Origin: a virus
Taxonomy: Duplodnaviria > Caudoviricetes
DNA: 64,000 nucleotides
Virus record (IMG/VR): IMGVR_UViG_3300030098_006079
Reading direction: 5' to 3' (one strand)
The notes under the pieces are model-generated. The model was not told the origin of the DNA. It searched no databases and worked only from the letters and a program-made list of their open reading frames with translations. The translations under genes and the position numbers were made by a program. This document shows positions 1,443 through 33,895 of the stretch, piece by piece. Position 1 is the stretch's first letter; each line of letters opens with the position of its first letter.

Positions 1443-4400
1443 ATGGCGAAAATTGTTATAACTAACGGTACTATTCACTCAGATGATGATTTTAACTTAA
1501 CATCTGGATCGGATGCGAATACACGTAATAACTTCCGGATATGTAAGCAAAAAGATTCACATACCCGATTACGTTCATTATCATCCTTTAGAATAAAAAC
1601 GCACGATTTACTCAATACTGGTAATGCAGAGATTTGTGGAAATCTTACTGTACATGGTACCTGTACTGTTCTTAATACTACCTTATGTTTAACAGATACA
1701 ACTGCGACTGATAACTTTACTCTTGTATCTACTGATGCGGGTGCGTCTGCTGCTCCTGATTTTAAACTGTATAGAAACTCAGCCAGCCCAGCTAATAACG
1801 ATTCTTTAGGCCATATTAAATTTAGTGGTAAGGATGCTGCCGGCAATGAAACTGAGTATGCAAGTATAAAGGGTTGTATCCAATCTGTTGGTTCTGGTAG
1901 TGAGTGTGGCGCAATGTTAGGTAATGTTGTTATTAATGGGTCATCAACTGATATAATCAGAGTTGATTATGCAGGTTTGTGGACTCAAAACAACAAAAAT
2001 TTGTATCTTAATGGAAGTGGTCAACTTCGAAATTACGGGGCTTGTTTAAGACTATCTACAGGAGGAGGAGACTATAAAATAACATTCGAGCCAGACTCTA
2101 CTGTTAAAATGTGTTTACATGGAGGAGAGTTAACAGTTTGTAATAAAGTTTATACACCAATATTAAGAGCTACTGCTTGTACATTTTATGGTGCTTGTGG
2201 TTCTAGTAAATTATCCTCTGATGGAGATAATATGCGCCATACTACACAGTATGGTTGTATTAATTTTGGTCCAGGTAATGCTAGTTATGCTCATATAACA
2301 ACTGATAGAAGTCAATTTTATTTTAATAAACAGCTTGTAGTCGATTCTGGCGTTGTAATGTCTTACAATGAAGATCTTAAACTTTCACGTGCTGGTAATA
2401 GTGTAAATGCTATTTATATATGTAGCGCTCTAACAACTAGTTGTAATCCAACTAAACTATTTTCACAACAAGGACATACCATACCGCAGACTGGTAATGC
2501 TGTGTGTTGGTTGAAATTTGGATCTTTATGTATACCGCAACACGGTTATAAGATGCGCATGAAAGTTGTTGCGAGTAATGGTTACGGTTCTAGTACAACT
2601 GACACTACTCAAGAAACAACACTTTTATTTCAAACTGCAAACACCGGTGAAGCTAGTTCCGGTTCAAGTGTGTGTGCGTGTGTACATTCATTTATAGAAG
2701 GTAGTACGAAACGTGAATCAGATGCTCCTTACTGTTTTATTGTACACGAAGTTAATTCCGCATTATTTGAAATATTTGGTAAATTTAACACTTATACAGG
2801 AACCGGTAGTTATTATACAATAGAATCTGGACCTACTACATGTTGGATTGCATGTAACTCTTTTGTAGATCCTGATTCTTGTTCAGGTTCTTGTATAGTA
2901 TCTATACCTAATAGAGGTACTATATTTTGTACATCTTCCTCTACTACATGTATATGTGGTTCTGCTATTGTTCAGGGCGATATATGCATGAATAACAATT
3001 CGCGTGGTTATAAATTAGGTACTGATACCGGTGGTTCTGGTAGTAGAGCTTTTCTAGCATTAGATTCTGACGGTTCTGATGGTATTGGAGCTGGTTCTGA
3101 TTATTTCTTCGTTGCTAATGATGGTTCTGATACCAGATTTTATAATGAAGGCCCGGAACATATAAGACTATGTGGTAGTTCGTGTGTTGCTTTTTGTAAA
3201 CCGATAGCAGTTCACTGTTGCGCAAGAATAGCTACTATTAGAAACTTTACCAATACTACATACATGTGTCTTTGTGGTGGTTGTTGTTTGATAGGTGGTA
3301 TACAGTTTAAAGACTGTCAAGGTTGTGACCGTGGCTGGGTGTATCATGATGGTGCTGCTAATTTTGGTTTATTATCATGTGCTGGATCTTGGGCTATTAA
3401 AATAACAGGTACTAGTAATATACAAAGCTCTTACACTCATTGTTTTTCCGGAAATATTGGTCTTGCTGGTGGATCTGCTAGTCGGGTGTGTATAGCTGGT
3501 AAGCGCGCTATAGAAGGTAATAGTTGTATATTATCTTTAGGAGAAGATTGGGATTGTATATGTTTACGAGCTACTTGTACATATTCTACAGGAAACATAT
3601 GTACTACTGCATGTTTACAATCATCTGTGGTTTGTTCTACAGGTTGTGTAAAAACTCCGTTGATACAAGCGCAAGGCGGTGGAAGTTGTTTTGGTGCGCC
3701 TGCAGGTTGCGATGACTGGGAATGTAGTCCTATTAGCATTAGAGAAAGAGGAGCAGTTTCTTCTAATCAAAGTCATGATTGTTATGCTCCTAACTTAAAC
3801 TTTCATTGGGCTGGTAGAGTTTCAAACTCTTTGTATATGGCGGCGAACGGTCACTTAAAGTTTGGTTCTTATAATAGCAGCGGTTGTCCTGATGGTCCGA
3901 ACGGTGTTTTCTGGGCTGGTACTCTGTGTGGTAATACTTGTGTAAAATCTCCTATTGTTTGTGGTACAACATGTTTAGCTACTAATGTTATTTCTAGTAG
4001 TGGTAGTGCACCATCTGATTACGGTGCATTGGCGATTGAAGGAGCCAAAGGAGGTTATGGTGGTGTTCATTTCTGTGGGTATACATTTATGGCAGCATCA
4101 GATTGCGGTGGCGGTGGTATTTATAACGATACTCACAATCAATGGGCTATATGGAATGGTGCAAATGCTGCTACTTACATTTATCATGCTGGTAATGCGA
4201 AATTACATACTATCACCAATGGTGTACGAGTATGCAAAGAATCAAACGCCGGGTATATAGACATTTGCCCATCAGGTGGTTGGGGTCATCTTATAACTAG
4301 TAACAATTGTTTCTACATGAACGTACCATTGATGGTCAATGGAGGTAGTATTGGTTCTTATGACGAAGATTTAACGCTACAAAGAGGTTATTCCCTTACT

Positions 4401-9998: not shown

Positions 9999-11066
9999 GT
10001 GGACAAACATATTATCTTTCACGTAGAAGGCGGTATCGGTAAGAACATTATGGCTACGGCCGTAGCTGAAGCTATATCAAAAGCACATCCTGATAGAAAA
10101 TTAATCGTAGTAGCTGCATGGGCAGCAGTATGGGTAAATAATCCTCATATTGAACGTTTTTATATGCTGGGCGCTACTCCATACTTTTTTGAAGATTTTA
10201 TTAAAGGTAAAGATACTTGGATCTTTAAGTCTGAACCATACCACCATCATGACTTTTTAAACGGTAAGAGATACCTTGCAGATATTTGGTGTGAGCAACT
10301 AGGCGTACCATACAACGGAGAATTACCCACAATAGTTCTATCTAAAAATGAGAAAGATAATATGGATAGAAAGCTCCGTGGTTTTGGTAAGCCTATATTT
10401 GCTCTACAAACTAACGGAGGTGGTCCACAAGACTACCCAGTATCATGGGTAAGAGATGTACCTCTATCTAATCTTAAAGAAGTACTAAACGAAGTTAATA
10501 AAGAATATAAGATTATTCATATTAGGAGGAAAGATCAGTTAGAGATTAAAGGTATTGATTATATCGAAACTCCAAATGTAAGAGACCTATTTGCTCTTGT
10601 AGAATATTCTCATAACAGATTATTAATTGATAGCTTTGCTCAACACGCAGCAGTTGCATTAGATAGACCATCTACTGTATTATGGCCTATTGATAACGTT
10701 AAGACATTAGGTTATCCTGATTTTCATAACAATATTGTATCTAATGCTGATACTCGTAAAGTACATTTAATTGATAGTTACTTAGGTGCTCATCCGATCA
10801 ATGGAGAGTTCTTACATGAGTGTCCATTTGATAATGACAATATATTTGAATCCCAACCAATCTTCGACAGTCTCGAAGAATTAGAAGAGAAAGAATTTTA
10901 CGAAGCTCCTGCAGGGGTGAGAGTAAGTAACAAGCAAGAGAAGAACTTATTTGATACCGCTAAGCCGTTACCTCCAGAGCCTATGTTAGCTCAAATGAAC
11001 AATCCATTCCCTCCTGCACCAGGTAAACGTACTAATAGACAAAAACCTAAGAAACGTAGAAAGTAA
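9999..11066 (+). CDS. Glycosyltransferase, GT9 (heptosyltransferase)-like
   Basis: EGGIGKNIMATA, NNPHI, IDSFAQHAAVAL motifs of GT9-like fold; GTG start after ATAAAT. Confidence 0.65.
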   Translation: MDKHIIFHVEGGIGKNIMATAVAEAISKAHPDRKLIVVAAWAAVWVNNPHIERFYMLGATPYFFEDFIKGKDTWIFKSEPYHHHDFLNGKRYLADIWCEQLGVPYNGELPTIVLSKNEKDNMDRKLRGFGKPIFALQTNGGGPQDYPVSWVRDVPLSNLKEVLNEVNKEYKIIHIRRKDQLEIKGIDYIETPNVRDLFALVEYSHNRLLIDSFAQHAAVALDRPSTVLWPIDNVKTLGYPDFHNNIVSNADTRKVHLIDSYLGAHPINGEFLHECPFDNDNIFESQPIFDSLEELEEKEFYEAPAGVRVSNKQEKNLFDTAKPLPPEPMLAQMNNPFPPAPGKRTNRQKPKKRRK

Positions 11067-11884
11067 TGTCAACAATCTTTTTTCAGTCCTCTATGCCGAG
11101 GGCAGGTAGTACATTATTACAAAATGTACTTGCTCAAAATCCTGACATATATGCTACACCTACCTCAGGTGTATTAGAGTTAACATTCGCGGCTCGTCAT
11201 ATGTTTAACGAATCTAATGAGTTTAAAGCTCAAGACTCTAAAACTATGGAGGAAGGTCTTATTGGTTTCCTCAATGAAGGTATACATGGTTGGTATGATA
11301 ATATTACTGACAAACCATATGTAGTGGATAAGAGTAGAGGTTGGGGTATACATTATGACTTCTTAGATGCTTTCTTAGAATATGAACCTAAGATTATCTG
11401 TATGGTAAGAGATCTTAGACAGATTATTGCCTCTATGGAAAAGAAATTTAGAGAGAATCCTCTCGACCATGACCCTATAGTTAATTGGTCAGAAATGTCG
11501 GGCACAACTGTTGAGAAAAGAGCGGACGTATGGTTACAAACACAGCCTGTAGGCTTAGCATTAGAGCGTTTTGGTGAGATAATTAAACGCGGGTGGGATA
11601 AACATATGTTGTTTGTAAAGTTTGAGGACTTCACAAAGTATCCAGATGAAGAAATGGATAGGATATATGACTATCTAGAACTTGATTCTTATACTGGACA
11701 CGACTTCAATAAGGTAGAACAGACTACAAAAGAAGATGACACCATATACGGAATATACGGTGATCATAAAATTAATCCTGTAGTAAGCGAGTTACCACAG
11801 GATTATATCGACGTACTTGGTGTTAAAACTTGCGACCATATAAAAGATGTCGGTCAGTTTTATTTCAAGTATTTTAATTATTAA
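11066..11884 (+). CDS. Sulfotransferase family protein
   Basis: PAPS-binding SMPRAGSTLLQ, DKSRGW, CMVRDLRQIIASM, FVKFEDF. Confidence 0.85.
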   Translation: MSTIFFQSSMPRAGSTLLQNVLAQNPDIYATPTSGVLELTFAARHMFNESNEFKAQDSKTMEEGLIGFLNEGIHGWYDNITDKPYVVDKSRGWGIHYDFLDAFLEYEPKIICMVRDLRQIIASMEKKFRENPLDHDPIVNWSEMSGTTVEKRADVWLQTQPVGLALERFGEIIKRGWDKHMLFVKFEDFTKYPDEEMDRIYDYLELDSYTGHDFNKVEQTTKEDDTIYGIYGDHKINPVVSELPQDYIDVLGVKTCDHIKDVGQFYFKYFNY

Positions 11885-15582: not shown

Positions 15583-16008
15583 ATGGAAGTAGAAACGTTA
15601 AATAAAACATGGTTCGTAGATGTAGATGGAACAATCCTACATCATCACACAAATGATAGCTTGGATAAACTTATCGAGGAGTATGGAGAAGATAGTTTTA
15701 AATATGAACAGCCTATTGTTAGTGCTGTAGAGTTTTTTCAAGATCTACCGGAAACAGATATCATTGTTATTGCAACTGCTCGCGAAAAGAGACACACCGA
15801 TCATACATTAAATGTATTAGAATATATTGGTATGCCTTTTGATCAATGGATATTCGAGTTAGGTGCTGGTCCTAGAGTTGTGGTAAACGACATCAAACCA
15901 CCGGGCGCGGCTGGCAATAAAAGAGCTCTCAAGACAGCTTACGGAATTAATCTAGATCGAGATGGAGGAATTACATCAAAGCATCGTGCGATTGCAGCAA
16001 AAATTTAA
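15583..16008 (+). CDS. HAD-superfamily phosphatase-like protein
   Basis: FVDVDGTI motif I, IATAR motif II. Confidence 0.75.
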
Positions 16009-16009
16009 A

Positions 16010-17191
16010 ATGGTAACAAAAATAGGAACCCCGTTTACGAAGACTTCTACTTTAGTAATGCTATGTGGAAGTGGAGAGTTAGGTAAAGAAGTTGTAATTG
16101 AATTGCAGCGTTTAGGTGCTGAAGTAGTTGCAGTAGACTCATATGAGAACGCTCCAGCGCATCAAGTAGCAGATCATTCGGCTGTTATTGATATGCTCGA
16201 CGAAAAACAATTGAGGGATGTCATCGTTAAATACAATCCTAATATTATTGTTCCAGAGATTGAAGCTATTGCTACAAATGTCCTGAAAGAAGCAGAAGAA
16301 TGTGATCGTACAGTCATACCAAATGCTAGAGCAGTTCAACTTACTATGAACCGAGAAGGTATTCGGTCTCTTGTAGCTGAAGAGCTAGGTTTAAAGACTT
16401 CTAATTATAAATTCGCTTCTACTAAAGAAGAGTTCACCGCAGCTGTTGAAGAAATCTCTTTACCTTGTGTAGTTAAGCCTATTATGTCTTCTAGCGGTAA
16501 AGGACAGAGTGTAATTAGATCGTTTGACGATGTACATACTGCCTGGGAATACGCTCAAACTGGAGGTCGAGCTGGAGCTGGTCGAGTTATTGTAGAAGAG
16601 TTTATTGAATTTGATTATGAAATTACTTTACTCACAGTAAAGCATAACGACGGTATCTCTTTTTGTGAACCTATCGGGCATGAGCAAGTAGATGGAGATT
16701 ATATTAAATCCTGGCAACCTCATCCAATGTCTGGTACCGCGAGACAAAAAGCTGAAGATATTGCTAGAAGCGTAGTAAGCAATCTTGGTGGGTATGGTGT
16801 GTTTGGAGTAGAGTTATTTGTAAAGGGTGATGAAGTTTATTTTTCTGAAGTATCTCCACGCCCACATGATACTGGTTTAGTGACTATGATCTCTCAAGAT
16901 CTATCAGAATTTGCTCTACATGCAAGAGCTATATTAGGTTTACCAATCCCTAATATTCTACAGCTAGGTTTTGGAGCATCTCATGTTATTAAGCTAGAAG
17001 GTAAGAGTGATAATGTAACATTCTCTGGCTTCGACGGTTTAAAAGAAACAGGTACTCAAGTGAGACTGTTTGGAAAACCTGGAGTAAATGGTTCGCGTCG
17101 TATGGGTGTTGCTTTAGCAATTGATAATGGTTTAGGATATGCAAAAGAAAAAGCCGAACGAGTCGCACTCAGCGTTAAGTCCGAATTGTAA
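16010..17191 (+). CDS. purT: Formate-dependent phosphoribosylglycinamide formyltransferase
   Basis: [55 protein letters not shown]. Confidence 0.97.
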
Positions 17192-21734: not shown

Positions 21735-21766
21735 AATTTATGTTAATAATAAACGTTACAGGAATA

Positions 21767-22546
21767 ATGAAAGTATTAATACGTGTTGCAATAATAGGTA
21801 GTTTAGCTTATTTTGCTGGGTATGCGGTAGGTGCACCAATGACACCTTCTCCAACTATACAAAAATACAATGGCTTATTCATGCCAATATCAGAAAAAAA
21901 ACCTCATTTATTTTATTTTTTAATGAGAGGAGAGGTCGTCGTTGGAGATGACAAAAAAATTCAACTAGATGATGATGCATTTATTCAAGCAGTTAAAGAA
22001 ACAGAAGGTCATAAAATATATCAATTGAGGATAAGAGGTAGCGCAGTTAGTCATATAGGTATTGAAGCTCTTAAAGGACAAAATGAATTACGATATTTAG
22101 ATTTATCTAACAACAAACTTATAACAGATGTTGCTTGTAAAAAAATAGCAGAATATTTTCCACGACTAGAACGGCTTAATTTATTTAACACCTTTGTATC
22201 TGATAAAGGGTTATCTCATCTCATTAATCTACAGGAACTTAGACAACTACATATAGGAGAGACTAATGTGACATGGGATGCTGCAAATAAGTTTAGAGGT
22301 AAAATGGAAGCTATAGGTGGTAACGACGACTTAGAAATTACAACAGGGTATCATGCCCAACCGCTTGGAAGTATTAAACGCAATAAGTGGCTAAGATCTA
22401 ATTATCAAAAAAATGCAGAGTTAAGTATTATAGATGAAGAAGCTATACTCAAAAAACACTTGCTTATATCTCCAGATAGTATAAAATCTAACAAGACGTA
22501 TGAGGACGATACAAAAAAAGAAGCAGACGGTCCAATTTTAGAATAA
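21767..22546 (+). CDS. Secreted leucine-rich repeat protein (PVC type)
   Basis: Signal peptide; LRYLDLSNN, LERLNLFNTFVSDKGL, LRQLHIGETNVT. Confidence 0.8.
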   Translation: MKVLIRVAIIGSLAYFAGYAVGAPMTPSPTIQKYNGLFMPISEKKPHLFYFLMRGEVVVGDDKKIQLDDDAFIQAVKETEGHKIYQLRIRGSAVSHIGIEALKGQNELRYLDLSNNKLITDVACKKIAEYFPRLERLNLFNTFVSDKGLSHLINLQELRQLHIGETNVTWDAANKFRGKMEAIGGNDDLEITTGYHAQPLGSIKRNKWLRSNYQKNAELSIIDEEAILKKHLLISPDSIKSNKTYEDDTKKEADGPILE

Positions 22547-26874: not shown

Positions 26875-27372
26875 GTGCCAAAATATTCATACGGTAAAGA
26901 TGGTGATGAGAGTAGTGTTGGTTTTGGAGGAACAAAACCTAAGCAAACTAAATCTAAAGCTGCAAAGACGTTTAATCAGTTAGTACGTTCTATCTATCGC
27001 TCGACTATTATGGCGCAGCGTAAAGTAGACGAGCAGGTTGTAGAGCATTTTCTAGAAAGATTCTTTGATAAAGATGGTCATCCTAATTTGTTTAGGTTAA
27101 GTCTCCCGACACACGACGGAGCACCTGTAGAAGTAGATGTACCTCTTATTACATTAACTCATGGTAATCATCTCAATATCAAAGAATTAGAGATTGATTT
27201 TGAAGTTGAGCTAGGTCACTTAGAAGATATTGACAATGATGATATTAGTGCTGCAGTTACATCAGTTAATGGTAAGCGGATGGCTAAAGTCCGAATGAAA
27301 CTTGACTCTACAGAGCCGCCTGAGGGTATAGCTCGCATACGACAAGAGATGATTAAACAGCTCCCATCTTAA
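26875..27372 (+). CDS. DUF2589 family protein
   Basis: FNQLVRSI..AQR..VDVPLITL..LNIKELEIDFEV; GTG start 6 nt after TTGCAT-16-TAAAAT. Confidence 0.75.
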   Translation: MPKYSYGKDGDESSVGFGGTKPKQTKSKAAKTFNQLVRSIYRSTIMAQRKVDEQVVEHFLERFFDKDGHPNLFRLSLPTHDGAPVEVDVPLITLTHGNHLNIKELEIDFEVELGHLEDIDNDDISAAVTSVNGKRMAKVRMKLDSTEPPEGIARIRQEMIKQLPS

Positions 27373-27422
27373 TTGCTCTGGATACATAGATTAAAATAAT
27401 ATCGTAGATAAATAATTTCGTT

Positions 27423-28091
27423 ATGGCAGGTATCGCAGATCAATTTAAAGGACTTCCAATGTCCGACCTTATTAGTCAACCCCTTATTGCTGCAGCAAAA
27501 GCACAAGGTCAACTATCAAACATTACGCAACAGTTCATTAAAGACGTAGGTCTTCAAGAAACTGGAGAAAAAGACGCAAGTGGTAATCCGAAATACTCAG
27601 CTCGTTCTGTTGATTTTGGATTTAAATCACCTGTTACCGATGGTAAAGGTAAAACAGAGCTTAAAGATGATAATCTTTCAGTTCCATTACTGTCTATTGT
27701 AAATGTTCCTAACCTTTCAGTTAAGAAAGCTACAGTAGATTTTTCTATGGAAGTAAAGGCTTCAAGCTCTGATACATCTTCATCTAAAACTGATGCTAAC
27801 ATCAGCACTAGTGCTAAGTATTCAGCATGGTGGTCACCAGTTAGTGTTGAGATGAAAGCATCAGTAAGTACTAGTAACAAGCACGAGAGTGTACGTAAAA
27901 CAGATAACTCTGCTAAGTATGATGTTCATGTTGAAGCTAGAGATGATGGTGCTCCTGAAGGTTTAATGAAAGTGTTAGATATTCTTAACGCAGCAATTAT
28001 TCCAAATGGTGAATCGACTCCTGCACCAGCTGCGGCTCCAGCAGGTGGTGGTAGTGGTGGTAGTGGTGGTAGTGGTAATAGTGGAGGTTAA
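27423..28091 (+). CDS. DUF2589 family protein
   Basis: FKGLPMSDLISQPLIAAAKAQ..VPLLSIVNVPNL..SAKYDVHVEA..PEGLMKVLDIL; ATAAATA late promoter. Confidence 0.85.
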   Translation: MAGIADQFKGLPMSDLISQPLIAAAKAQGQLSNITQQFIKDVGLQETGEKDASGNPKYSARSVDFGFKSPVTDGKGKTELKDDNLSVPLLSIVNVPNLSVKKATVDFSMEVKASSSDTSSSKTDANISTSAKYSAWWSPVSVEMKASVSTSNKHESVRKTDNSAKYDVHVEARDDGAPEGLMKVLDILNAAIIPNGESTPAPAAAPAGGGSGGSGGSGNSGG

Positions 28092-28153: not shown

Positions 28154-28606
28154 ATGAGTATTCCCCGTAGACGAAGAAGATCAATTAGGACAGTTATTGC
28201 TGATTTACAGAGTGCAATTGCTGATTTAGATGCACGTGTAGATGCATTAGAAGAAGAAGATGAATGGCTTTTAGAAGCTCCAACTGGAACAACATTCACA
28301 CAACCAGATACCACAGTAGATGGTGGACAATCTATTGGTGTTGGAAGTACTGCTCCGACAGTTACTATCCCGGCCGCTACATTAGTTAATTTAATCCAGG
28401 CTCAGCCTATAAATACTTCTATGAGTGATAATGTAGGTATTGGAAGTTCTGCTCCACCCGTTGGAGTTGGAAGTACAAGTGATGGTGTTGGAGTTGGAAG
28501 TACTGCTCCAACAGGAACAACATTCACCCAACCTGACACTACTGTTGACGGTGGACAAGTTGGTATTGGTAGCACGACAGATGTCGGTATTGGAACTTCT
28601 TCTTAA
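28154..28606 (+). CDS. Late protein with coiled coil and G(V/I)GST repeats
   Basis: TATAAATA upstream; two APTGTTFTQPDTTVDGGQ repeats. Confidence 0.7.
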   Translation: MSIPRRRRRSIRTVIADLQSAIADLDARVDALEEEDEWLLEAPTGTTFTQPDTTVDGGQSIGVGSTAPTVTIPAATLVNLIQAQPINTSMSDNVGIGSSAPPVGVGSTSDGVGVGSTAPTGTTFTQPDTTVDGGQVGIGSTTDVGIGTSS

Positions 28607-28626: not shown

Positions 28627-28654
28627 AAAAGCCTCCTAACGGAGGCTTTTTTTT
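28627..28654. terminator. Bidirectional terminator
   Basis: aaaagcctcc-TAAC-ggaggctttt between convergent genes. Confidence 0.85.
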
Positions 28655-28989
28655 CCCCAAAATTTATGCTCGTAGTCTGGGGTATTTTCTTCTATCAAAG
28701 CATCTCTCCATTCTGTCTTAGAGGCATCAGATAATAATATGTGATTGGTGGTGTTAGTATCAGGAGATGGTTCCCATCTCCTTGCTAGCTCATGCAATTG
28801 AGCTTCTTCGTAACTTAACATATGAGTCAAGTTAGCAAAGCGTTTAAGTAATGAACGTTTAGGAGGAGGATTAATACCTCTTTCCACTTTACGCCACATT
28901 CTCTTTTCTACTCCAAGTATCTTACTAAACTTAGTTAAGTCTTTGAAGTATTTTAATCTTATTTCTTTTATGTAAGTATTAAATTTCAT
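28636..28989 (-). CDS. XRE-type HTH protein
   Basis: IKEIR..LTKFSKILGV..WRKVERGINPPP. Confidence 0.75.
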   Translation of the reverse strand: MKFNTYIKEIRLKYFKDLTKFSKILGVEKRMWRKVERGINPPPKRSLLKRFANLTHMLSYEEAQLHELARRWEPSPDTNTTNHILLSDASKTEWRDALIEENTPDYEHKFWGKKSLR

Positions 28990-28991
28990 TT

Positions 28992-29198
28992 TTACCAACT
29001 GCTCCCAACTCCAACATTACCGAAGCTATTAAATTCTGTTATTTCATTTACACTATAGAAGTCAAAATACGAATAATGATAACTATCTAATGATATAATA
29101 TCAAGAGGATCTGGCGCGACTACATTAGTGTTTGTTTGAGTACTGCTTGTTGCTGTATTATAATTAACTGGTCCGGTAAATGAAAACTGACCAGGCAT
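28992..29198 (-). CDS. Hypothetical protein
   Basis: Coupled ORF in minus-strand module. Confidence 0.55.
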   Translation of the reverse strand: MPGQFSFTGPVNYNTATSSTQTNTNVVAPDPLDIISLDSYHYSYFDFYSVNEITEFNSFGNVGVGSSW

Positions 29199-29444
29199 TT
29201 ATTCTTCCTTTTTTATTTTTATTGGTACATGTTGTTGAGTTGACCATGCGTGATGTAGACTATCATACGCTTCATCATAGTTCCATCGCGGACACTTAAA
29301 AGACATTGTTCTATGCTTAGGATAGTCTTCTTGCCATACCCATGTTCCTGAACACCCGCATAGAGTTATCACAATACAGCTATACAGTAAAGTAAAAACA
29401 AACCTACGAAAGGCGCTACGGCCACAATTAAATATTCTTTCCAT
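29199..29444 (-). CDS. Lipoprotein-like protein
   Basis: Lipobox TLCGC. Confidence 0.55.
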   Translation of the reverse strand: MERIFNCGRSAFRRFVFTLLYSCIVITLCGCSGTWVWQEDYPKHRTMSFKCPRWNYDEAYDSLHHAWSTQQHVPIKIKKEE

Positions 29445-29526
29445 TGTTTTTTAAAATCGTATCTACATATATTATAGACGCAAATTATATGCTCTTTAAA
29501 AGTTAGCTTCTTGAGTAATCGCGCCA

Positions 29527-29682
29527 TTACCTAACTCCTGACCCAACTCTTATTGGGAAGTATTGTTTTTTAACCTCTAAGTCACCTCTACCTTCGCAAG
29601 ATGAAACTGCTATTGCTATCATAAAAACTGTTAGCAATACCGTTATAAAAAATTCTTTTCTTTTTTGACTCATTCTACTCAT
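29527..29682 (-). CDS. Small lipoprotein-like protein
   Basis: MSRMSQKRKEFF..IAVSSC; start overlaps the cyclase stop. Confidence 0.5.
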   Translation of the reverse strand: MSRMSQKRKEFFITVLLTVFMIAIAVSSCEGRGDLEVKKQYFPIRVGSGVR

Positions 29683-31252
29683 CAGTTTTAAACTCCGCTT
29701 TTTTTGTTCCTCGCCAATGAGGAAATTCTCTTCTACCAAAATTGTTACCATATGCGGTCCACATATGAACAGTAGTTCCGTGTTTAACTATAACAGGTCC
29801 CCAATCATCAAACTGTAAGCCAGGTATATCCATTTCACATACATACTGGTGTACATCGTTTGATATTAATAAGTGATCATTATCCCCTGCATCCATACAA
29901 CGTTGAGCCATATTAATACCTGTACCGCTTACGTTAGGGTTATCATTTATATCTTTTACAGGGACTACTGGACCAGAATACAATCCATTCCTTAAACCAA
30001 TACTAGAATGTTTATAAGTCATACGCCCTACATCGACCATACACTTAAATGCAGCATTAACGCTATTAAAAAATACTAACGCCATACCATCTCCAGTAGG
30101 TAATATAATTAATTTACCTTGTCTGTCTGCTTGTTGATATCCTTGTGTACCTTTAACACAATCAATTAACTCATCTGTAACTTTCTTTTGCTCAGCTGTA
30201 GTCTTTTTAGAATAACCTACTATATCCATAAAGTAGGTATGAGCTCGACATGGAGAGTCGTATTGAATTCCTTCTCCTTTTAACTTAAATGGATCTTGTC
30301 CCCACTTCCATTTTATAACTCTTTGTTTCTTTTTATCTTCTTCTTCTTTTTGTATTTTCTCAGCTGCTTCTCTTCTTGCTTTAGCTTGTTCGCCTGCTAT
30401 TCTATTCTTTACAGCTTCTCTTTTCTCTTTTTTATCTTTTGATTCAAATAGTTTACCTAACAGCGTATCAGGTTCTTGTAATGCTTTTCTATCTTCATCT
30501 TGTTCTCTACGTTCTTTTCTTATGCGATCTAAAGCTTCGTCGGCAGCTTTATTATCAAAAACTTGATTATTGACTCTTGGTTTGTATTTAGGATTATCCC
30601 TACTAGGGTGTTTACATGCTCCTCTTTTAACTAAGTAGTCAAGCATTACATTACTATTATTAGCATTAGCTATTTCCCAGGCATTATAATGGAATTGATC
30701 ATTAGGATTGTAAGTTGATCCGTTTATGTTCGCTTTAGCATCTAATAAAATTTTAACTATATTAATATTGTTAATATCTACTGCGTAGTGTAAGGCCATC
30801 CACCCTCTATGGTCTCTTGCATTAATTTTTAAACTATCATCTTCTAATAGACCTTCTATTTCATCTATATCTTCTAACTGTACGCATTGATGTAAAGTAA
30901 GTTCTTTATTATAAAACATACCCCCTGCGTCTCTTAATGAACCTACAATTTTATGACGATTAGGTCCATCAGCTACATCCATAGCGGTAACTATAGGACA
31001 TTCTTTGTCCTCCATTATCGCTAAGTTCCAACTACTCTGTCTAACACTTACTGGTTTACTTGGAGTGTTTGGATCTACTCCAGCTTCAAGAATAACGCTT
31101 ACTATTTTTACTTTACTTTTATTAGACGCGTAGTGAAGTGGAGTCCATCCGTTATCTTCATCTGTAGAATAAAATAAATTAGGAGTTTCTAAAGCCCTTT
31201 TTATACATCTTAAGTTCCCCGTCGCAGCTAATTGATGCAAACTCTCATCCAT
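29675..31252 (-). CDS. Ankyrin-repeat / coiled-coil / class III nucleotide cyclase fusion
   Basis: GWTPLHYA and GWMALHYAV ankyrin repeats; FMDIVGYS, PTGDGMALVF, GLYSGPV, GINMAQR cyclase motifs. Confidence 0.9.
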   Translation of the reverse strand: MDESLHQLAATGNLRCIKRALETPNLFYSTDEDNGWTPLHYASNKSKVKIVSVILEAGVDPNTPSKPVSVRQSSWNLAIMEDKECPIVTAMDVADGPNRHKIVGSLRDAGGMFYNKELTLHQCVQLEDIDEIEGLLEDDSLKINARDHRGWMALHYAVDINNINIVKILLDAKANINGSTYNPNDQFHYNAWEIANANNSNVMLDYLVKRGACKHPSRDNPKYKPRVNNQVFDNKAADEALDRIRKERREQDEDRKALQEPDTLLGKLFESKDKKEKREAVKNRIAGEQAKARREAAEKIQKEEEDKKKQRVIKWKWGQDPFKLKGEGIQYDSPCRAHTYFMDIVGYSKKTTAEQKKVTDELIDCVKGTQGYQQADRQGKLIILPTGDGMALVFFNSVNAAFKCMVDVGRMTYKHSSIGLRNGLYSGPVVPVKDINDNPNVSGTGINMAQRCMDAGDNDHLLISNDVHQYVCEMDIPGLQFDDWGPVIVKHGTTVHMWTAYGNNFGRREFPHWRGTKKAEFKTDE

Positions 31253-31260
31253 ATAATTAT

Positions 31261-31545
31261 TTATTCAGCATAGTAGAAGGGAATACTAGCCGAAGCGTGA
31301 CATTCATAACACCTATCATAAGTTTTTACCAATAATTGTATATCATCTGCATGAATATTAACTGAATTATATTCAGGCATAGCCTTTAGTATGTCAACTT
31401 GTCTTTTATATGTTTGACAGGCAGCTATTTGAGCTCTTCTCTTAGCGTTACTGTAGGATTGAACGGCGAGAGCTGTCAATAGCGCTATAATTGTTATAGT
31501 GAGTAATAATTCTAGTAGAGTATATCCTTTATTCCCATGCGTCAT
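31261..31545 (-). CDS. Short type IV prepilin-like protein with C-terminal CxxCH
   Basis: G/YTLLELLLTITIIALL N-methylation motif; RCYECH at 31297-31311. Confidence 0.8.
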   Translation of the reverse strand: MTHGNKGYTLLELLLTITIIALLTALAVQSYSNAKRRAQIAACQTYKRQVDILKAMPEYNSVNIHADDIQLLVKTYDRCYECHASASIPFYYAE

Positions 31546-32509
31546 CCCAATACCATCCCCATGAGTCGAAAGTTTTTCCTGATATATCTCTTAAATTCCA
31601 CTCTCTTACATATCGTCCAATACCTCCACCCATCCAACCTTTCCATGGATGATTGTTAGGATAAGGGACAATAGCTCTTTCTTGTAACCACTGCAAATCT
31701 CTATTACCCGGGCTTACTACTTGTTCTAGACTAGTGTTAGGGTTCTTTACATGTTCTGGTATGTTTTTAGTGAGCTCTTCTAACCATCTTCTAAACTCAA
31801 CATGCCCATCAGTAAATGATACCACTGATCCATTTATATGATATATACCAGGCCAATCCATAGAAAATATAGACTCCTTATCTTTTAGTACAGGAACTAC
31901 TCTAAAGTTACCTGCGTTAATTGATTCTGCTGGCATCTCAATAAATGTAAACATGTTACTCGGGTCAGTTATATCTGCATATTTGTGATGTACTTTATAT
32001 TGATTGTCATATAAAAAAGGCCATCCTGACCATCCACCTACAAATATATTCATACTGTATGATCTTGCTCGTTGTACAGTAGTAACTTTATTTGTACCAG
32101 AAGAGGGAGGAGGGACCATTCCCCATCTTCCACCATCCCAAGTTACAGTAGACTTATCTTGAGGACAACGATAGATACCTTTACCGGCATACTGGAACAA
32201 AGGAGACCAAATTAAAGACCTTTCCGTTTGAGCCCATTTGCTCCACTTACTACCACCTGACATACTATCAGCTACCCAGGCTCTTGGTGCAGTAGGTTCG
32301 TTGTGCCAAGCAGATGCGTATGCTATTTTATCATCAGAGTCTAATGCTAGCTGACTCATAGCATAGTTTAGTTGCTTATGATTAGAAATACAAAGAGCTT
32401 TAGATGCAGACTGCTTTGACTTAGATAAAGCAGGTAATAATAAGGCAGCAAGTATAGCTATTATAGCTATTACTACAAGTAGTTCTATTAAAGAAAAGGC
32501 TTTTTTCAT
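31529..32509 (-). CDS. Prepilin-type cleavage/methylation protein, DUF1559-like with H-X9-DG C-terminus
   Basis: AFSLIELLVVIAIIAILAALLLPAL, CISNHKQL, YRCPQD, SYSMN, H-INGSVVSFT-DG-H. Confidence 0.92.
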   Translation of the reverse strand: MKKAFSLIELLVVIAIIAILAALLLPALSKSKQSASKALCISNHKQLNYAMSQLALDSDDKIAYASAWHNEPTAPRAWVADSMSGGSKWSKWAQTERSLIWSPLFQYAGKGIYRCPQDKSTVTWDGGRWGMVPPPSSGTNKVTTVQRARSYSMNIFVGGWSGWPFLYDNQYKVHHKYADITDPSNMFTFIEMPAESINAGNFRVVPVLKDKESIFSMDWPGIYHINGSVVSFTDGHVEFRRWLEELTKNIPEHVKNPNTSLEQVVSPGNRDLQWLQERAIVPYPNNHPWKGWMGGGIGRYVREWNLRDISGKTFDSWGWYWDDAWE

Positions 32510-32534
32510 CTCTTTAACTATTTAGAGTTAAATA

Positions 32535-32765
32535 TTACTTACTCAAATAAGATGATAATAAAGAAGTTGCGAAACCAATCACAGAAGCTCCTATAGCACC
32601 ATACATAATTATTTTAGTACTTAGTGTAGCTAATTGCACTTCTATTTTCTTTTGGTTCTTTTGAAGCTCTTCGATATCTGAGTTTAGACGACTTAACTCA
32701 CTGAGTACCAAACGTCTCCACTCAGCCCAGGAACCGTTCTCTAATTTATTTGGATCATTACTCAT
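32535..32765 (-). CDS. Small coiled-coil + C-terminal TM protein (holin/XhlA-like)
   Basis: Heptad region followed by IIMYGAIGASVIGFATSLL. Confidence 0.55.
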   Translation of the reverse strand: MSNDPNKLENGSWAEWRRLVLSELSRLNSDIEELQKNQKKIEVQLATLSTKIIMYGAIGASVIGFATSLLSSYLSK

Positions 32766-33099
32766 GCGGGACAAGGGTTACTTTTTTATGTATTAATTTG
32801 CCATTTCTGTTTAGATCTCTTATCTTTACTGTGTGAGTGGCACCATTGATATCTACTGTGACTGTCTTTCTAGACCATTTTGAAATATCTACACCAATAA
32901 TACTTTTTAGACCCTTGTTGTGGATTTCTGTACTATCCACTTCAAATGACTGTTGAAAGAATTCATTGCACCATTTAATTCTGCCTGCTTCGGATACCAG
33001 CACGATGGAATAATCCGCTTCAGTAACATAATTAATAAAGTCGTTTTCATGCAGCTCTAGCTGATGTGTCAACTTTTCTAATTTCTTCAAATTAGTCAC
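32758..33099 (-). CDS. Stand-alone PAS-fold protein
   Basis: SIVLVSEAGRIKWCNEFFQQSFEVDSTEIHNK fits the PAS signature; ATAAATA upstream on - strand. Confidence 0.6.
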   Translation of the reverse strand: MTNLKKLEKLTHQLELHENDFINYVTEADYSIVLVSEAGRIKWCNEFFQQSFEVDSTEIHNKGLKSIIGVDISKWSRKTVTVDINGATHTVKIRDLNRNGKLIHKKVTLVPHE

Positions 33100-33133: not shown

Positions 33134-33895
33134 ATGAAATTTGATAAGCCAAGAATTTTGGTCATTGGTGATAAGTGCGCTGATCAGTACGTTTATGGTA
33201 ATGTGACGCGTCTTTGCCCGGATGTTCCTGCGCCTGTCTTCAAACCTGTTAAGACTGTCCAGACAGATGGTATGGCTGGAAACGTAGCCCGACAGTTAAG
33301 AGAGTGGGACTGTTATGTTGATACTAAGTTTAACGAGGAATTTATTTGTAAGAGAAAATACATCGATGAGAAGACTAATCATACTATCATTAGAGTAGAT
33401 ACTGAAAAACCTGTTAGTCGGATACAATCTGATAATTTAAATGAATTATTACATAATGCTAACGAAAAATGGGATGGTATTATTGTATCAGATTATGGTA
33501 AAGGATTCTTACATCAACAAGATATTAGAAAGATTTGTGAGGCACACCCATTAGTGTTTGTTGATACTAAAAAGACTTTAGATCATAATTTTAAGTCATG
33601 TGCTTTTATTAAGATAAACGAACCCGAATGGAACGCTACAAAAGATAATGTATCATCTGAAGTAAAAAATAAAGTTATTGTGACGCTAGGGGGTAAAGGT
33701 TGTATGTATAATGGTAAGACATATCCTGTTAACCCTGTAGACGTTTTCGACTTATCTGGAGCTGGTGATACCTTTATGTGCGGATTAGTCACATCTTATA
33801 TTCACGAACAAGATATTGATACAGCTTTATTTTGCGCTAATGATTGCGCTGTTCGTGTAGTCCAGAAAAAAGGTGTTGCAACAATCGAGATTTGA
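33134..33895 (+). CDS. rfaE: PfkB-family kinase, RfaE/HldE heptose-7-P kinase domain
   Basis: ILVIGD..YVYG..R, GMAGNVA, VSDYGKG, FVDTK, DLSGAGDTF. Confidence 0.85.
   Translation: MKFDKPRILVIGDKCADQYVYGNVTRLCPDVPAPVFKPVKTVQTDGMAGNVARQLREWDCYVDTKFNEEFICKRKYIDEKTNHTIIRVDTEKPVSRIQSDNLNELLHNANEKWDGIIVSDYGKGFLHQQDIRKICEAHPLVFVDTKKTLDHNFKSCAFIKINEPEWNATKDNVSSEVKNKVIVTLGGKGCMYNGKTYPVNPVDVFDLSGAGDTFMCGLVTSYIHEQDIDTALFCANDCAVRVVQKKGVATIEI

Follow-up and report, generated by a model that had tools for sequence, protein, structure and literature searches.

The canonical base-selecting pairs of class III nucleotidyl cyclases are Lys/Asp for ATP and a Glu/Cys-type pair for GTP. Cyclic nucleotides also serve hosts as immune signals that phages destroy or sponge, and synthesis of a cyclic mononucleotide by the phage itself would invert that strategy; we found no biochemical characterisation of a phage-made cyclic mononucleotide synthase in the literature. 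Bacterial class III enzymes are homodimers with interfacial active sites (PMC4174876). Non-canonical base selection has been described for the cyclases of the Pycsar and Pucsar systems (PMC11224242; preprint 10.64898/2026.08.12.744502). Adenylate cyclase genes have been reported in uncultivated pelagiphages, where they lie next to curli (T8SS) genes (PMC9599517). A CHASE2-type sensor-cyclase of an uncultured Caudovirales phage (BFVD A0A6J5RWB7) is likewise a phage-encoded putative class III cyclase.

The window analysed here is a 64,000-nucleotide stretch of viral DNA, and its minus strand carries a gene for an ankyrin-repeat protein with a C-terminal class III cyclase domain (Ank-cyclase; protein P0001). 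Among solved structures, the best sequence and profile matches are Rv1900c (LipJ) of M. tuberculosis (1ybt/1ybu), Ma1120 (4wp9) and the Ruegeria-type 3mr7, with an identity of just ~20%. Rv1900c resembles P0001 in having two metal-binding Asp residues and no selector Lys (Asn stands at the position of Leu384). Unlike P0001, it keeps the selector Asp, which is Asn in P0001, and it is the product of a bacterial gene with an alpha/beta-hydrolase fusion instead of ankyrin repeats. PycC (Pycsar) and PucC (Pucsar) share with P0001 a class III-type core and the two metal-binding Asp residues, but they are host immune cyclases whereas P0001 is phage-encoded. The pelagiphage cyclase and A0A6J5RWB7 are similar to P0001 in belonging to marine or uncultured phages and in their proposed manipulation of host signalling, and they differ from it in sensor domains and gene context. 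The pelagiphage report mentions no ankyrin (PMC9599517), and its cyclase is set apart from P0001 by description, not by sequence; genes of the curli-cluster type (histidine kinase, FecR) had no match among the neighbouring ORFs scanned.

Domain architecture and fold

29675..31252, minus strand: Ank-cyclase gene (P0001), 525 codons plus TAG stop (ORF list, translation)
30593..31252, minus strand: ankyrin-repeat domain, residues 1-220, two blocks with an insertion at ~62-95 (Pfam, AF2)
30317..30562, minus strand: charged helical linker, residues 231-312, 57% K/R/E/D (AF2, composition)
29717..30250, minus strand: class III nucleotidyl cyclase catalytic domain, residues 335-512 (PDB profile, Foldseek, PF00211 matches of relatives)

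The span of the 525-residue open reading frame given in the initial annotation agrees exactly with the ORF list, and a codon check placed FMDIVGYS, LPTGDG, NVSGTG and NMAQR where they had been reported. The N-terminal domain is matched in Pfam by Ank_2 (E=1.2e-17) and Ank (E=3.8e-15), with Ank_4 and Ank_3 likewise over their cut-offs, and in the AF2 model it forms the helical pairs of tandem 33-residue helix-turn-helix repeats, with pLDDT mostly >90. The linker that follows had been described as a charged coiled coil. The charged helix was borne out, with helices predicted at residues 234-258 and 272-309 (AF2). Heptad hydrophobicity is poor (36-57% at the best a/d register), and the segment resembles an ER/K-type single helix more closely than a classical coiled coil. 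Since it lacks a good heptad pattern, the linker may not drive dimerisation.

P0001 itself scores 11.9 bits (E=0.17) with the Pfam model PF00211, short of the 21.9-bit cut-off, and for this reason the cyclase call draws on profile searches and on the predicted fold. PF00211 is matched by 50 of 52 subfamily relatives. When a subfamily profile was searched against the PDB, class III cyclases were the only matches (3mr7 at 6.8e-15, 1ybt at 1.1e-11); this search used the cyclase domain alone, because ankyrin proteins dominated the matches of the full-length alignment. An alignment-based AlphaFold model reached a pLDDT of 88 and replaced a single-sequence model of the cyclase domain with a pLDDT of 35. 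Foldseek placed the model at TM 0.75-0.81 to 1ybt (Rv1900c), 4wp9 (Ma1120) and 3et6, a eukaryotic guanylate cyclase, and superposition on Rv1900c gave TM 0.80, in agreement with the beta-alpha-beta-beta-alpha-beta fold of the cyclase homology domain; Rv1900c and Ma1120 have the same fold as P0001 (TM 0.78-0.81, rmsd 2.8-3.0 Å). A homodimer prediction for the cyclase domain scored 0.01 against a mark of 0.42, a result that counts neither way.

Catalytic and base-selecting residues

30224..30226, minus strand: Asp343, first metal-binding Asp (FMDIVGYS), unchanged in all 108 close and all 153 distant relatives
30089..30091, minus strand: Asp388, second metal-binding Asp (LPTGDG), invariant in 261/261 aligned sequences
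29900..29914, minus strand: Asn447-Arg451 (NMAQR), transition-state-stabilising pair (alignment of relatives)
30101..30103, minus strand: Leu384, at the slot filled by Lys where adenine is selected and by Glu in guanylate cyclases (alignment)
29933..29935, minus strand: Asn440, at the slot of the second selector Asp (alignment)

Both metal-binding Asp residues and the transition-state Asn/Arg pair had been called intact, and D343, D388, N447 and R451 are indeed present and conserved in the 261 sequences. Asp343 aligns with the DIVG Asp of Rv1900c (HMMER). The position of Asn447 (codon 29912-29914) is Asn in 108/108 close and 149/153 distant relatives, and that of Arg451 (codon 29900-29902) is Arg in 107/108 and 153/153, respectively; R421 is also invariant across the 261 aligned sequences. 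These residues bear on the hypothesis of a pseudo-enzyme, in which the cyclase-like domain would bind nucleotide or scaffold a dimer and the ankyrin domain would sequester a host protein. Such a reading is consistent with the non-canonical selectors, with the sub-threshold Pfam score and with the fact that ankyrin proteins commonly work by binding alone. However, every metal-binding and transition-state residue has stayed constant, or almost so, throughout a very deep family, and no part of the protein is better conserved than the cyclase domain (dN/dS 0.01-0.06), which is the opposite of what an ankyrin-only function predicts. We consider a pseudo-enzyme very improbable.

How, then, would the base be selected? 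That Leu384 and Asn440 stand at the two selector positions is supported by HMMER alignments with cyclases of known structure, in which L384 aligns to the Lys of 3mr7 and the Asn of Rv1900c, and N440 to the selector Asp of both (K-T-T-G-D-G and D-I-F-G-D-A-V-N-V-A-A-R in 3mr7; N-T-A-G-D-G and T-D-V-A-G in Rv1900c, 1ybt). Neither canonical pair (Lys/Asp, Glu/Cys) is present in P0001. Because Rv1900c, a solved adenylyl cyclase, is also without the Lys, the pair does not define membership and bears on the predicted substrate only. The selector residues of Rv1900c are reportedly dispensable, and Rv0386, with Gln/Asn, is an adenylyl cyclase.

This odd pair gives no support to a special, phage-specific or Pycsar-like chemistry: the same pair occurs in 108/108 close relatives and in most distant ones. 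Of 153 distant relatives, 147 have Leu or Ile at the Leu384 position (126 with Leu, 21 with Ile), and 146 have Asn at the Asn440 position. To judge from these alignments, Leu384/Asn440 is the norm of a subfamily and no peculiarity of phages. The Leu/Asn subfamily comprises ~1,500 cluster representatives at 50% identity. In its bacterial members the cyclase is joined to a Ser/Thr kinase, a TPR array or another module, and these architectures look like those of ordinary signalling proteins. We found no characterised product for any member in the literature. P0001 offers tractable access to a branch of the class III cyclases that is very large and unstudied, and since both textbook selectors are replaced there by Leu and Asn, one LC-MS assay could give the product for the whole branch.

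A non-adenine product (cGMP, cCMP or cUMP) might interfere with cyclic-nucleotide immunity of the Pycsar or Pucsar kind, by acting as an effector decoy or antagonist or through premature or mistimed triggering. Besides the missing purine-selector pairs, the observation that small pocket changes switch the base in Pycsar and Pucsar cyclases (PMC11224242; preprint 10.64898/2026.08.12.744502) is in line with this hypothesis, as are weak PycC HMM matches in 23 of 52 relatives (best 9e-7). These matches are, however, weaker and rarer than those to PF00211, and PycC models matched neither full P0001 at E<=1 nor its cyclase domain at E<=0.01. The published selector sets are Y50/D94/R97 in BcPycC, F100/R142/Q144 in EaPycC and F60/K104/F109 in AnPycC (PMC11224242), and F341, L384 and T386 of P0001, placed only by their register to the metal-binding Asp residues, match none of them. 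Moreover, hundreds of bacterial signalling proteins with kinase or TPR fusions carry the Leu/Asn pair, and an effector would be expected to be activated, not blocked, by a cyclic nucleotide. No cNMP-binding domain of a PycTIR/PycTM-type effector was found among the neighbours of Ank-cyclase. By its sequence, Ank-cyclase does not appear Pycsar-like, and we consider interference with these systems unlikely. A broader version is doubtful as well, namely that the Leu/Asn subfamily, phages included, makes a cyclic mononucleotide other than cAMP, or a mixture if its pocket is indifferent to the base, and that the phage uses it to hijack or blunt a host cNMP pathway, possibly an immune one, under the control of an ankyrin domain that binds a host protein. 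If true, Ank-cyclase would be the first cyclic-mononucleotide synthase of a phage to have a defined role against the host, and a product would be assigned to ~1,500 uncharacterised cyclase clusters.

Origin, distribution and selection

The closest bacterial counterpart is a 594-residue ankyrin-cyclase of Verrucomicrobiota (P0120; loci L004 and L016-L018; MAGs), which has the same three-part layout from the ankyrin blocks to the C-terminal tail, an equivalent Lys/Glu-rich linker and the same Leu/Asn pair. It is 33% identical to P0001 overall and 44-46% in the cyclase domain, carries ~100 extra N-terminal ankyrin residues, and lies in a chromosomal context with ligA, his genes, flagellar genes and an FGE-sulfatase gene. 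In the tree, the phage and Verrucomicrobiota ankyrin-cyclases form one clade (support 100/99), in which the Verrucomicrobiota proteins are the sister group; the likeness to Verrucomicrobia cyclases noted in the initial annotation is real. The two proteins are collinear end to end, which together with the single clade indicates that the ankyrin-cyclase fusion arose once.

Homologues of the gene are found in open-ocean plankton metagenomes and fall into more than 100 marine clusters at 60-98% identity. dN/dS values of 0.01-0.15 across all three regions denote strong purifying selection, and on both counts Ank-cyclase is a real gene, far beyond chance. Between phage sub-lineages, the ankyrin domain is ~56% identical and the cyclase domain 84-94%; a fast-diverging ankyrin module beside a fixed catalytic module points to a host-specific protein partner.

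Ankyrin effectors aimed at eukaryotes have been proposed for the ankyrin proteins of sponge-symbiont phages. By analogy, P0001 might act against a grazer or the animal host of a bacterium, with the cyclase as a toxin-like payload. The ankyrin half is structurally like many ankyrin proteins of eukaryotic viruses and weakly matches models of Legionella Ank effectors. The Legionella matches, however, are generic to ankyrin and far below cut-offs, no secretion signal was seen in the P0001 sequence, the orthologue occupies an ordinary chromosomal context in free-living aquatic Verrucomicrobiota, and the gene itself is one of open-ocean plankton. We regard a eukaryotic target as extremely unlikely.

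Phage carriage and gene neighbourhood

A 97%-identical copy of the gene shares a 119-kb IMG/VR contig with a T4-type gp32 gene (PF08804, 68 bits, above cut-off), in agreement with the proposal that the cyclase is phage-encoded. On this evidence the carrier is an uncultured marine T4-like phage. A T4-type search of viral records also gave a weak gp19 match; the T4 capsid (PF07068) and portal (PF07230) models matched neither three partial viral records nor their controls, a result that carries no information. In another type of phage (L021), a 61%-identical copy is flanked by genes for AAA_24 and a family-A DNA polymerase. The initial annotation had allowed that the fusion might prove common in phage databases and already characterised. 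Common it is, with its clusters spanning T4-like phages and the family-A-polymerase phage, and we found no characterisation of it in the literature. A tblastn search of cultured and GenBank phages with P0001 and with a 914-aa neighbouring ORF gave no match. Because the gene is ocean-abundant, common to unrelated phage types and strongly conserved, it likely matters to infection.

Three small genes lie downstream of Ank-cyclase and travel with it (tblastn):

29527-29751, minus strand: lipoprotein-like ORF
29199-29444, minus strand: lipoprotein-like ORF
28636-28998, minus strand: 120-aa ORF

Together (28636..29751) they adjoin Ank-cyclase in 10 of 12 related viral loci (L001-L003, L006-L013), and domain searches assigned none of the three to a family. 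Pycsar consists of a cyclase and a membrane effector (PMC11224242), and the frequent company of two lipoprotein-like ORFs and the 120-aa ORF would fit a phage-borne defence or exclusion module in which the cyclase signals to downstream membrane or lipoprotein genes and thereby excludes competing phages or times lysis. Against this, the small downstream ORFs (<=81 aa) have no cNMP-binding domain and belong to no recognised family, L009 and L010 have the 120-aa gene in reverse orientation, the synteny of T4-like genomes is generally conserved, and the PolA-type phage copy (L021) has different neighbours. Such a module is very unlikely in our view. PF00027 had no match in three related viral records, among them the near-identical 119-kb record, which is 59% complete, whereas 10 of 14 control genomes matched; as the available 59% of that genome holds no cNMP receptor, any receptor would be the host's.

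Proposed function

We propose that P0001 is a cytoplasmic class III cyclase in which an N-terminal ankyrin module for protein binding is joined by a long charged helix to a C-terminal catalytic domain. This domain would pair with a second copy, thereby forming the active sites, and during infection would convert a nucleoside triphosphate to a 3',5'-cyclic nucleotide. Conversion of ATP to cAMP is our best guess, and selectivity among purines may be relaxed. By binding a host or phage protein, the ankyrin domain would set when or where the cyclase is active, and as a result a second-messenger pathway of the host would be taken over by the phage, which would make Ank-cyclase an auxiliary regulatory gene. 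Enzymatic activity, product, ankyrin partner and benefit to the phage are what we infer here. The combination of ankyrin repeats with an apparently active, conserved cyclase suggests that the protein probably makes a cyclic-nucleotide signal in the host, most likely cAMP. We assign a probability of roughly 0.55 to the full reading, in which an ankyrin-gated, active cyclase makes a cyclic nucleotide, with cAMP as the best guess, and takes over host signalling. The fusions of bacterial relatives with Ser/Thr kinases and TPR arrays also favour a signalling role over defence. Rewiring of host signalling appears more economical than the jamming of immune signalling by a cyclic nucleotide, which is speculation.

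Expression signals and other neighbouring genes

Occurrences of the late-promoter box TATAAATA show no enrichment in the window (18, with 13.4 expected), and sigma-70-like promoters and terminators around the Ank-cyclase gene are at chance level. In three marine metatranscriptome libraries, contigs match parts of the gene (90-97% identity), with DNA carry-over as a possible source; they do not cover 31398-32524, which is no evidence of silence. A helicase-like ORF had distant, uninformative matches only. Assignment of a host from a neighbouring prepilin-like gene was dropped, its H-X9-DG match scoring 17 bits against a 19-bit cut-off. A 43% relative, first taken as cellular, comes from a 333-kb contig that carries T4 rIIB and numerous small ORFs and is probably a jumbo phage.

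A class III cyclase domain in the ankyrin-cyclase

A codon-by-codon check of the ankyrin-cyclase gene placed every motif named in the initial annotation where it had been read:

29675-31252, minus strand: ankyrin-cyclase gene, ORF of 525 residues
D343, in FMDIVGYS: metal Asp
L384 and D388, in LPTGDG: selector position and metal Asp
N440, in NVSGTG: selector position
N447 and R451, in NMAQR: Asn/Arg pair

Pfam recognizes ankyrin repeats in residues 2-213 well over threshold (Ank_2, E=1.2e-17), and Guanylate_cyc (PF00211) scores the C-terminal part below threshold (E=0.17; 11.9 bits vs a cut-off of 21.9). Is this part nonetheless a class III cyclase domain, as had been proposed? Four agreeing lines bear the proposal out: phmmer, the PF00211 matches of relatives, a subfamily profile and superposition of an AlphaFold model. 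A phmmer search of residues 320-525 against PDB sequences returned the solved cyclases Rv1900c (1ybt; E=5e-4) and 3mr7 (E=4e-3), with the metal Asp and selector positions aligned in these matches. Searched exhaustively with HMMER, 1.84 billion cluster representatives yielded 1,518 proteins at E<1e-10 that match residues ~337-512 at 40-45% identity, and 50 of 52 sampled subfamily members matched PF00211 independently. The subfamily profile matched 31 distinct PDB sequences, all class III adenylate/guanylate cyclase domains, with 3mr7 (6.8e-15), Rv1900c (1.1e-11) and Ma1120 at the top. The alignment-based AlphaFold model (mean pLDDT 88; >90 across most of 335-512) superposes on Rv1900c with a TM of 0.80-0.81 and an rmsd of 2.8-3.0 Å, on Ma1120 with a TM of 0.78 and on a eukaryotic guanylate cyclase with a TM of 0.75, and its look-alikes in the ESM Atlas are PF00211 clusters too. 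Profile, family and model evidence thus agree that residues 335-512 form a class III cyclase domain.

The segment joining the two modules had been described as a charged coiled coil. It is indeed highly charged and helical, as residues 231-312 are 57% K/R/E/D and the model has helices spanning 234-258 and 272-309; after these, residues 311-327 are modeled with low confidence. The heptad pattern of a coiled coil is poor, however, since even the best a/d register has hydrophobics in just 36-57% of positions, and an ER/K-type single helix would account for the modeled linker no less well. Helices that precede class III domains are known to favor formation of the active dimer (PMC5699072), and this linker may or may not do the same.

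Base-selector residues and product

Which nucleotide would the enzyme cyclize? Leu384 and Asn440 had been taken as non-canonical features of the phage protein; the residues are real, but an alignment of 108 close and 153 distant relatives shows them to be typical of a large bacterial subfamily too. Position 384 is Leu in 108/108 close relatives and Leu (126/153) or Ile (21/153) in the distant ones, and position 440 is Asn in all 108 close and 146 of the 153 distant relatives. Such conservation marks a subfamily signature rather than a peculiarity of the phage protein. In the same alignment both metal Asp residues and Arg421 do not vary, and the Asn447/Arg451 pair is nearly invariant. Fusion partners of the bacterial members include Ser/Thr protein kinases, TPR arrays and a pPIWI-associated nuclease domain, architectures that belong to signalling proteins. 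A literature search turned up no biochemical work on any Leu/Asn member. Rv1900c, the closest solved relative, has Asn at the selector-Lys position and is an adenylyl cyclase all the same, which calls for caution in reading the product from the two selector positions. Ranked with low confidence, cAMP is the most likely product.

A Pycsar-like role, also raised initially, was not supported. Models of PycC, the pyrimidine cyclase of these anti-phage systems, matched neither the full protein at E<=1 nor the cyclase domain alone at E<=0.01. Relatives matched PycC weakly (23/52, best 9e-7), and their PF00211 matches were both stronger (best 5e-11) and commoner. The published pyrimidine-selecting sets (BcPycC Y50/D94/R97, EaPycC F100/R142/Q144 and AnPycC F60/K104/F109) (PMC11224242) have no counterpart in F341/L384/T386, the residues of the ankyrin-cyclase when positions are assigned by register from the metal Asp residues. 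Furthermore, no cNMP-binding domain is encoded adjoining the gene, and none turned up in three related, partial viral records in a search that matched 10/14 control genomes.

Distribution, origin and selection

A search of other data for the same fusion, suggested at the outset, found it to be common: TARA, ENA and JGI marine data hold the architecture in >100 clusters (90% identity), mostly of 475-551 aa, with cyclase domains 60-98% identical and contigs of up to 162 kb. Several independent studies have marine metagenomes that contain near-identical DNA. Uncultivated pelagiphages are reported to carry adenylate cyclase genes beside curli genes (PMC9599517), and BFVD holds a CHASE2-type cyclase of an uncultured phage and a response-regulator-cyclase of a giant virus; a literature search found no paper on the ankyrin-cyclase fusion. 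The ankyrin-cyclase is therefore a real and abundant phage-carried variant of a known enzyme kind.

The likeness to Verrucomicrobia cyclases noted initially proved correct. Among cellular proteins, the closest relatives are ankyrin-cyclases of 594 aa from Verrucomicrobiota and Verrucomicrobiales MAGs (cyclase domain 44-46% identical), found in ordinary chromosomal context with his genes, ligA, flagellar genes and FGE-sulfatase. A maximum-likelihood tree of the cyclase domain (169 tips, LG+C20+F+G4, sequences spanning at least about 165 domain positions) recovered the phage copies (94/99) and the Verrucomicrobiota fusions (99/95) as monophyletic and united them in one clade (100/99), with the other 145 representatives outside. 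Phage and Verrucomicrobiota proteins are collinear from the ankyrin blocks through the C-terminal tail, and this, together with the shared clade, indicates that the fusion arose once; since the two groups are reciprocally monophyletic, the tree gives no direction of transfer. Among phages the gene has moved between lineages, as shown by a copy 61% identical in the cyclase domain that lies between AAA_24 and family-A DNA polymerase/DUF3987 genes in a different phage type. That copy (1651-3078 of locus L021) encodes a shorter, 475-aa ankyrin-cyclase inside the replication module of a non-T4-like phage, a position that hints at expression in the early or middle phase of infection by that phage and at exchange of the gene among phage types.

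Pairwise Nei-Gojobori dN/dS among 12 phage copies was as follows:

Cyclase domain: 0.01-0.06
Ankyrin domain: 0.01-0.10
Helical linker: 0.04-0.15

When sub-lineages are compared, identity drops to about 56% in the ankyrin domain but remains 84-94% in the cyclase domain. The conserved core is thus the catalytic module, and the ankyrin module is the lineage-variable part, as would be expected of a partner-binding module. This pattern speaks against a pseudo-enzyme. Three marine metatranscriptome libraries from different studies contain contigs over the gene at 90-97% identity (for example, a 572-nt piece across 30414-30982), consistent with transcription of close relatives, with DNA carry-over as an alternative source.

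Gene neighbourhood and phage carriage

Plus-strand genes surround the minus-strand block (28636-33099) that holds the gene, and 8 bp separate the stop of an upstream prepilin-like ORF from the start of the ankyrin-cyclase. Neighbours of the gene are:

29527-29751: lipoprotein-like ORF, travels with the cyclase
29199-29444: lipoprotein-like ORF, travels with the cyclase
28636-28998: 120-aa ORF, travels with the cyclase
31529-32509 and 31261-31545, minus strand: phage-encoded prepilin-type proteins (N_methyl motif)

The first three accompany the ankyrin-cyclase in 10/12 related viral loci compared. Between the two lipoprotein-like ORFs, the stretch 29342-29584 varies from one related phage to another: in a metatranscriptome contig from run X18, 164 unrelated bases stand in place of 241. 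The prepilin-like genes do not co-travel, and even L006, a related phage with a 97%-identical cyclase gene, lacks the one encoding 326 aa. This 326-aa protein has a C-terminal H-x9-DG-like motif slightly under the NCBIfam cut-off, and its marine relatives at 60-87% identity number in the dozens. The gene for a relative at 43% forms a tandem pair with another N_methyl gene on L022, a 333-kb contig that is probably a jumbo phage. A 113-aa ORF (32758-33099, minus strand) with a weak PAS-like match (PAS_GdpP E=0.006, below cut-off) heads the block, is 95% conserved in L006 and was not found adjoining the cyclase in other lineages. A 150-aa ORF (28154-28606, plus strand) has internal repeats, with 'APTGTTFTQPDTTVDGGQ' twice and several 'GVGST/GIGS' units, and just 62% identity in L006, a phage otherwise 97% similar.

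The element carrying the gene is a phage. A 97%-identical copy lies on a 119-kb IMG/VR contig (59% complete per CheckV) with a T4-type gp32 over the Pfam cut-off (68 bits) and a weak gp19 match, and the window encodes two tRNAs, a DnaB-type helicase with PHROG matches and many ORFs without family. Host-like metabolic or auxiliary genes, all on the plus strand, encode a PurT-type ATP-grasp enzyme (15962-17191; E=6e-59), a sulfotransferase (11066-11884), a PfkB-family sugar kinase (33134-33895) and a leucine-rich-repeat protein (21740-22546). Two adjoining DUF2589 proteins (26875-28091, plus strand; E=8.7e-17 and 8.2e-36) are also encoded, the second ending in a Gly/Ser-rich tail.
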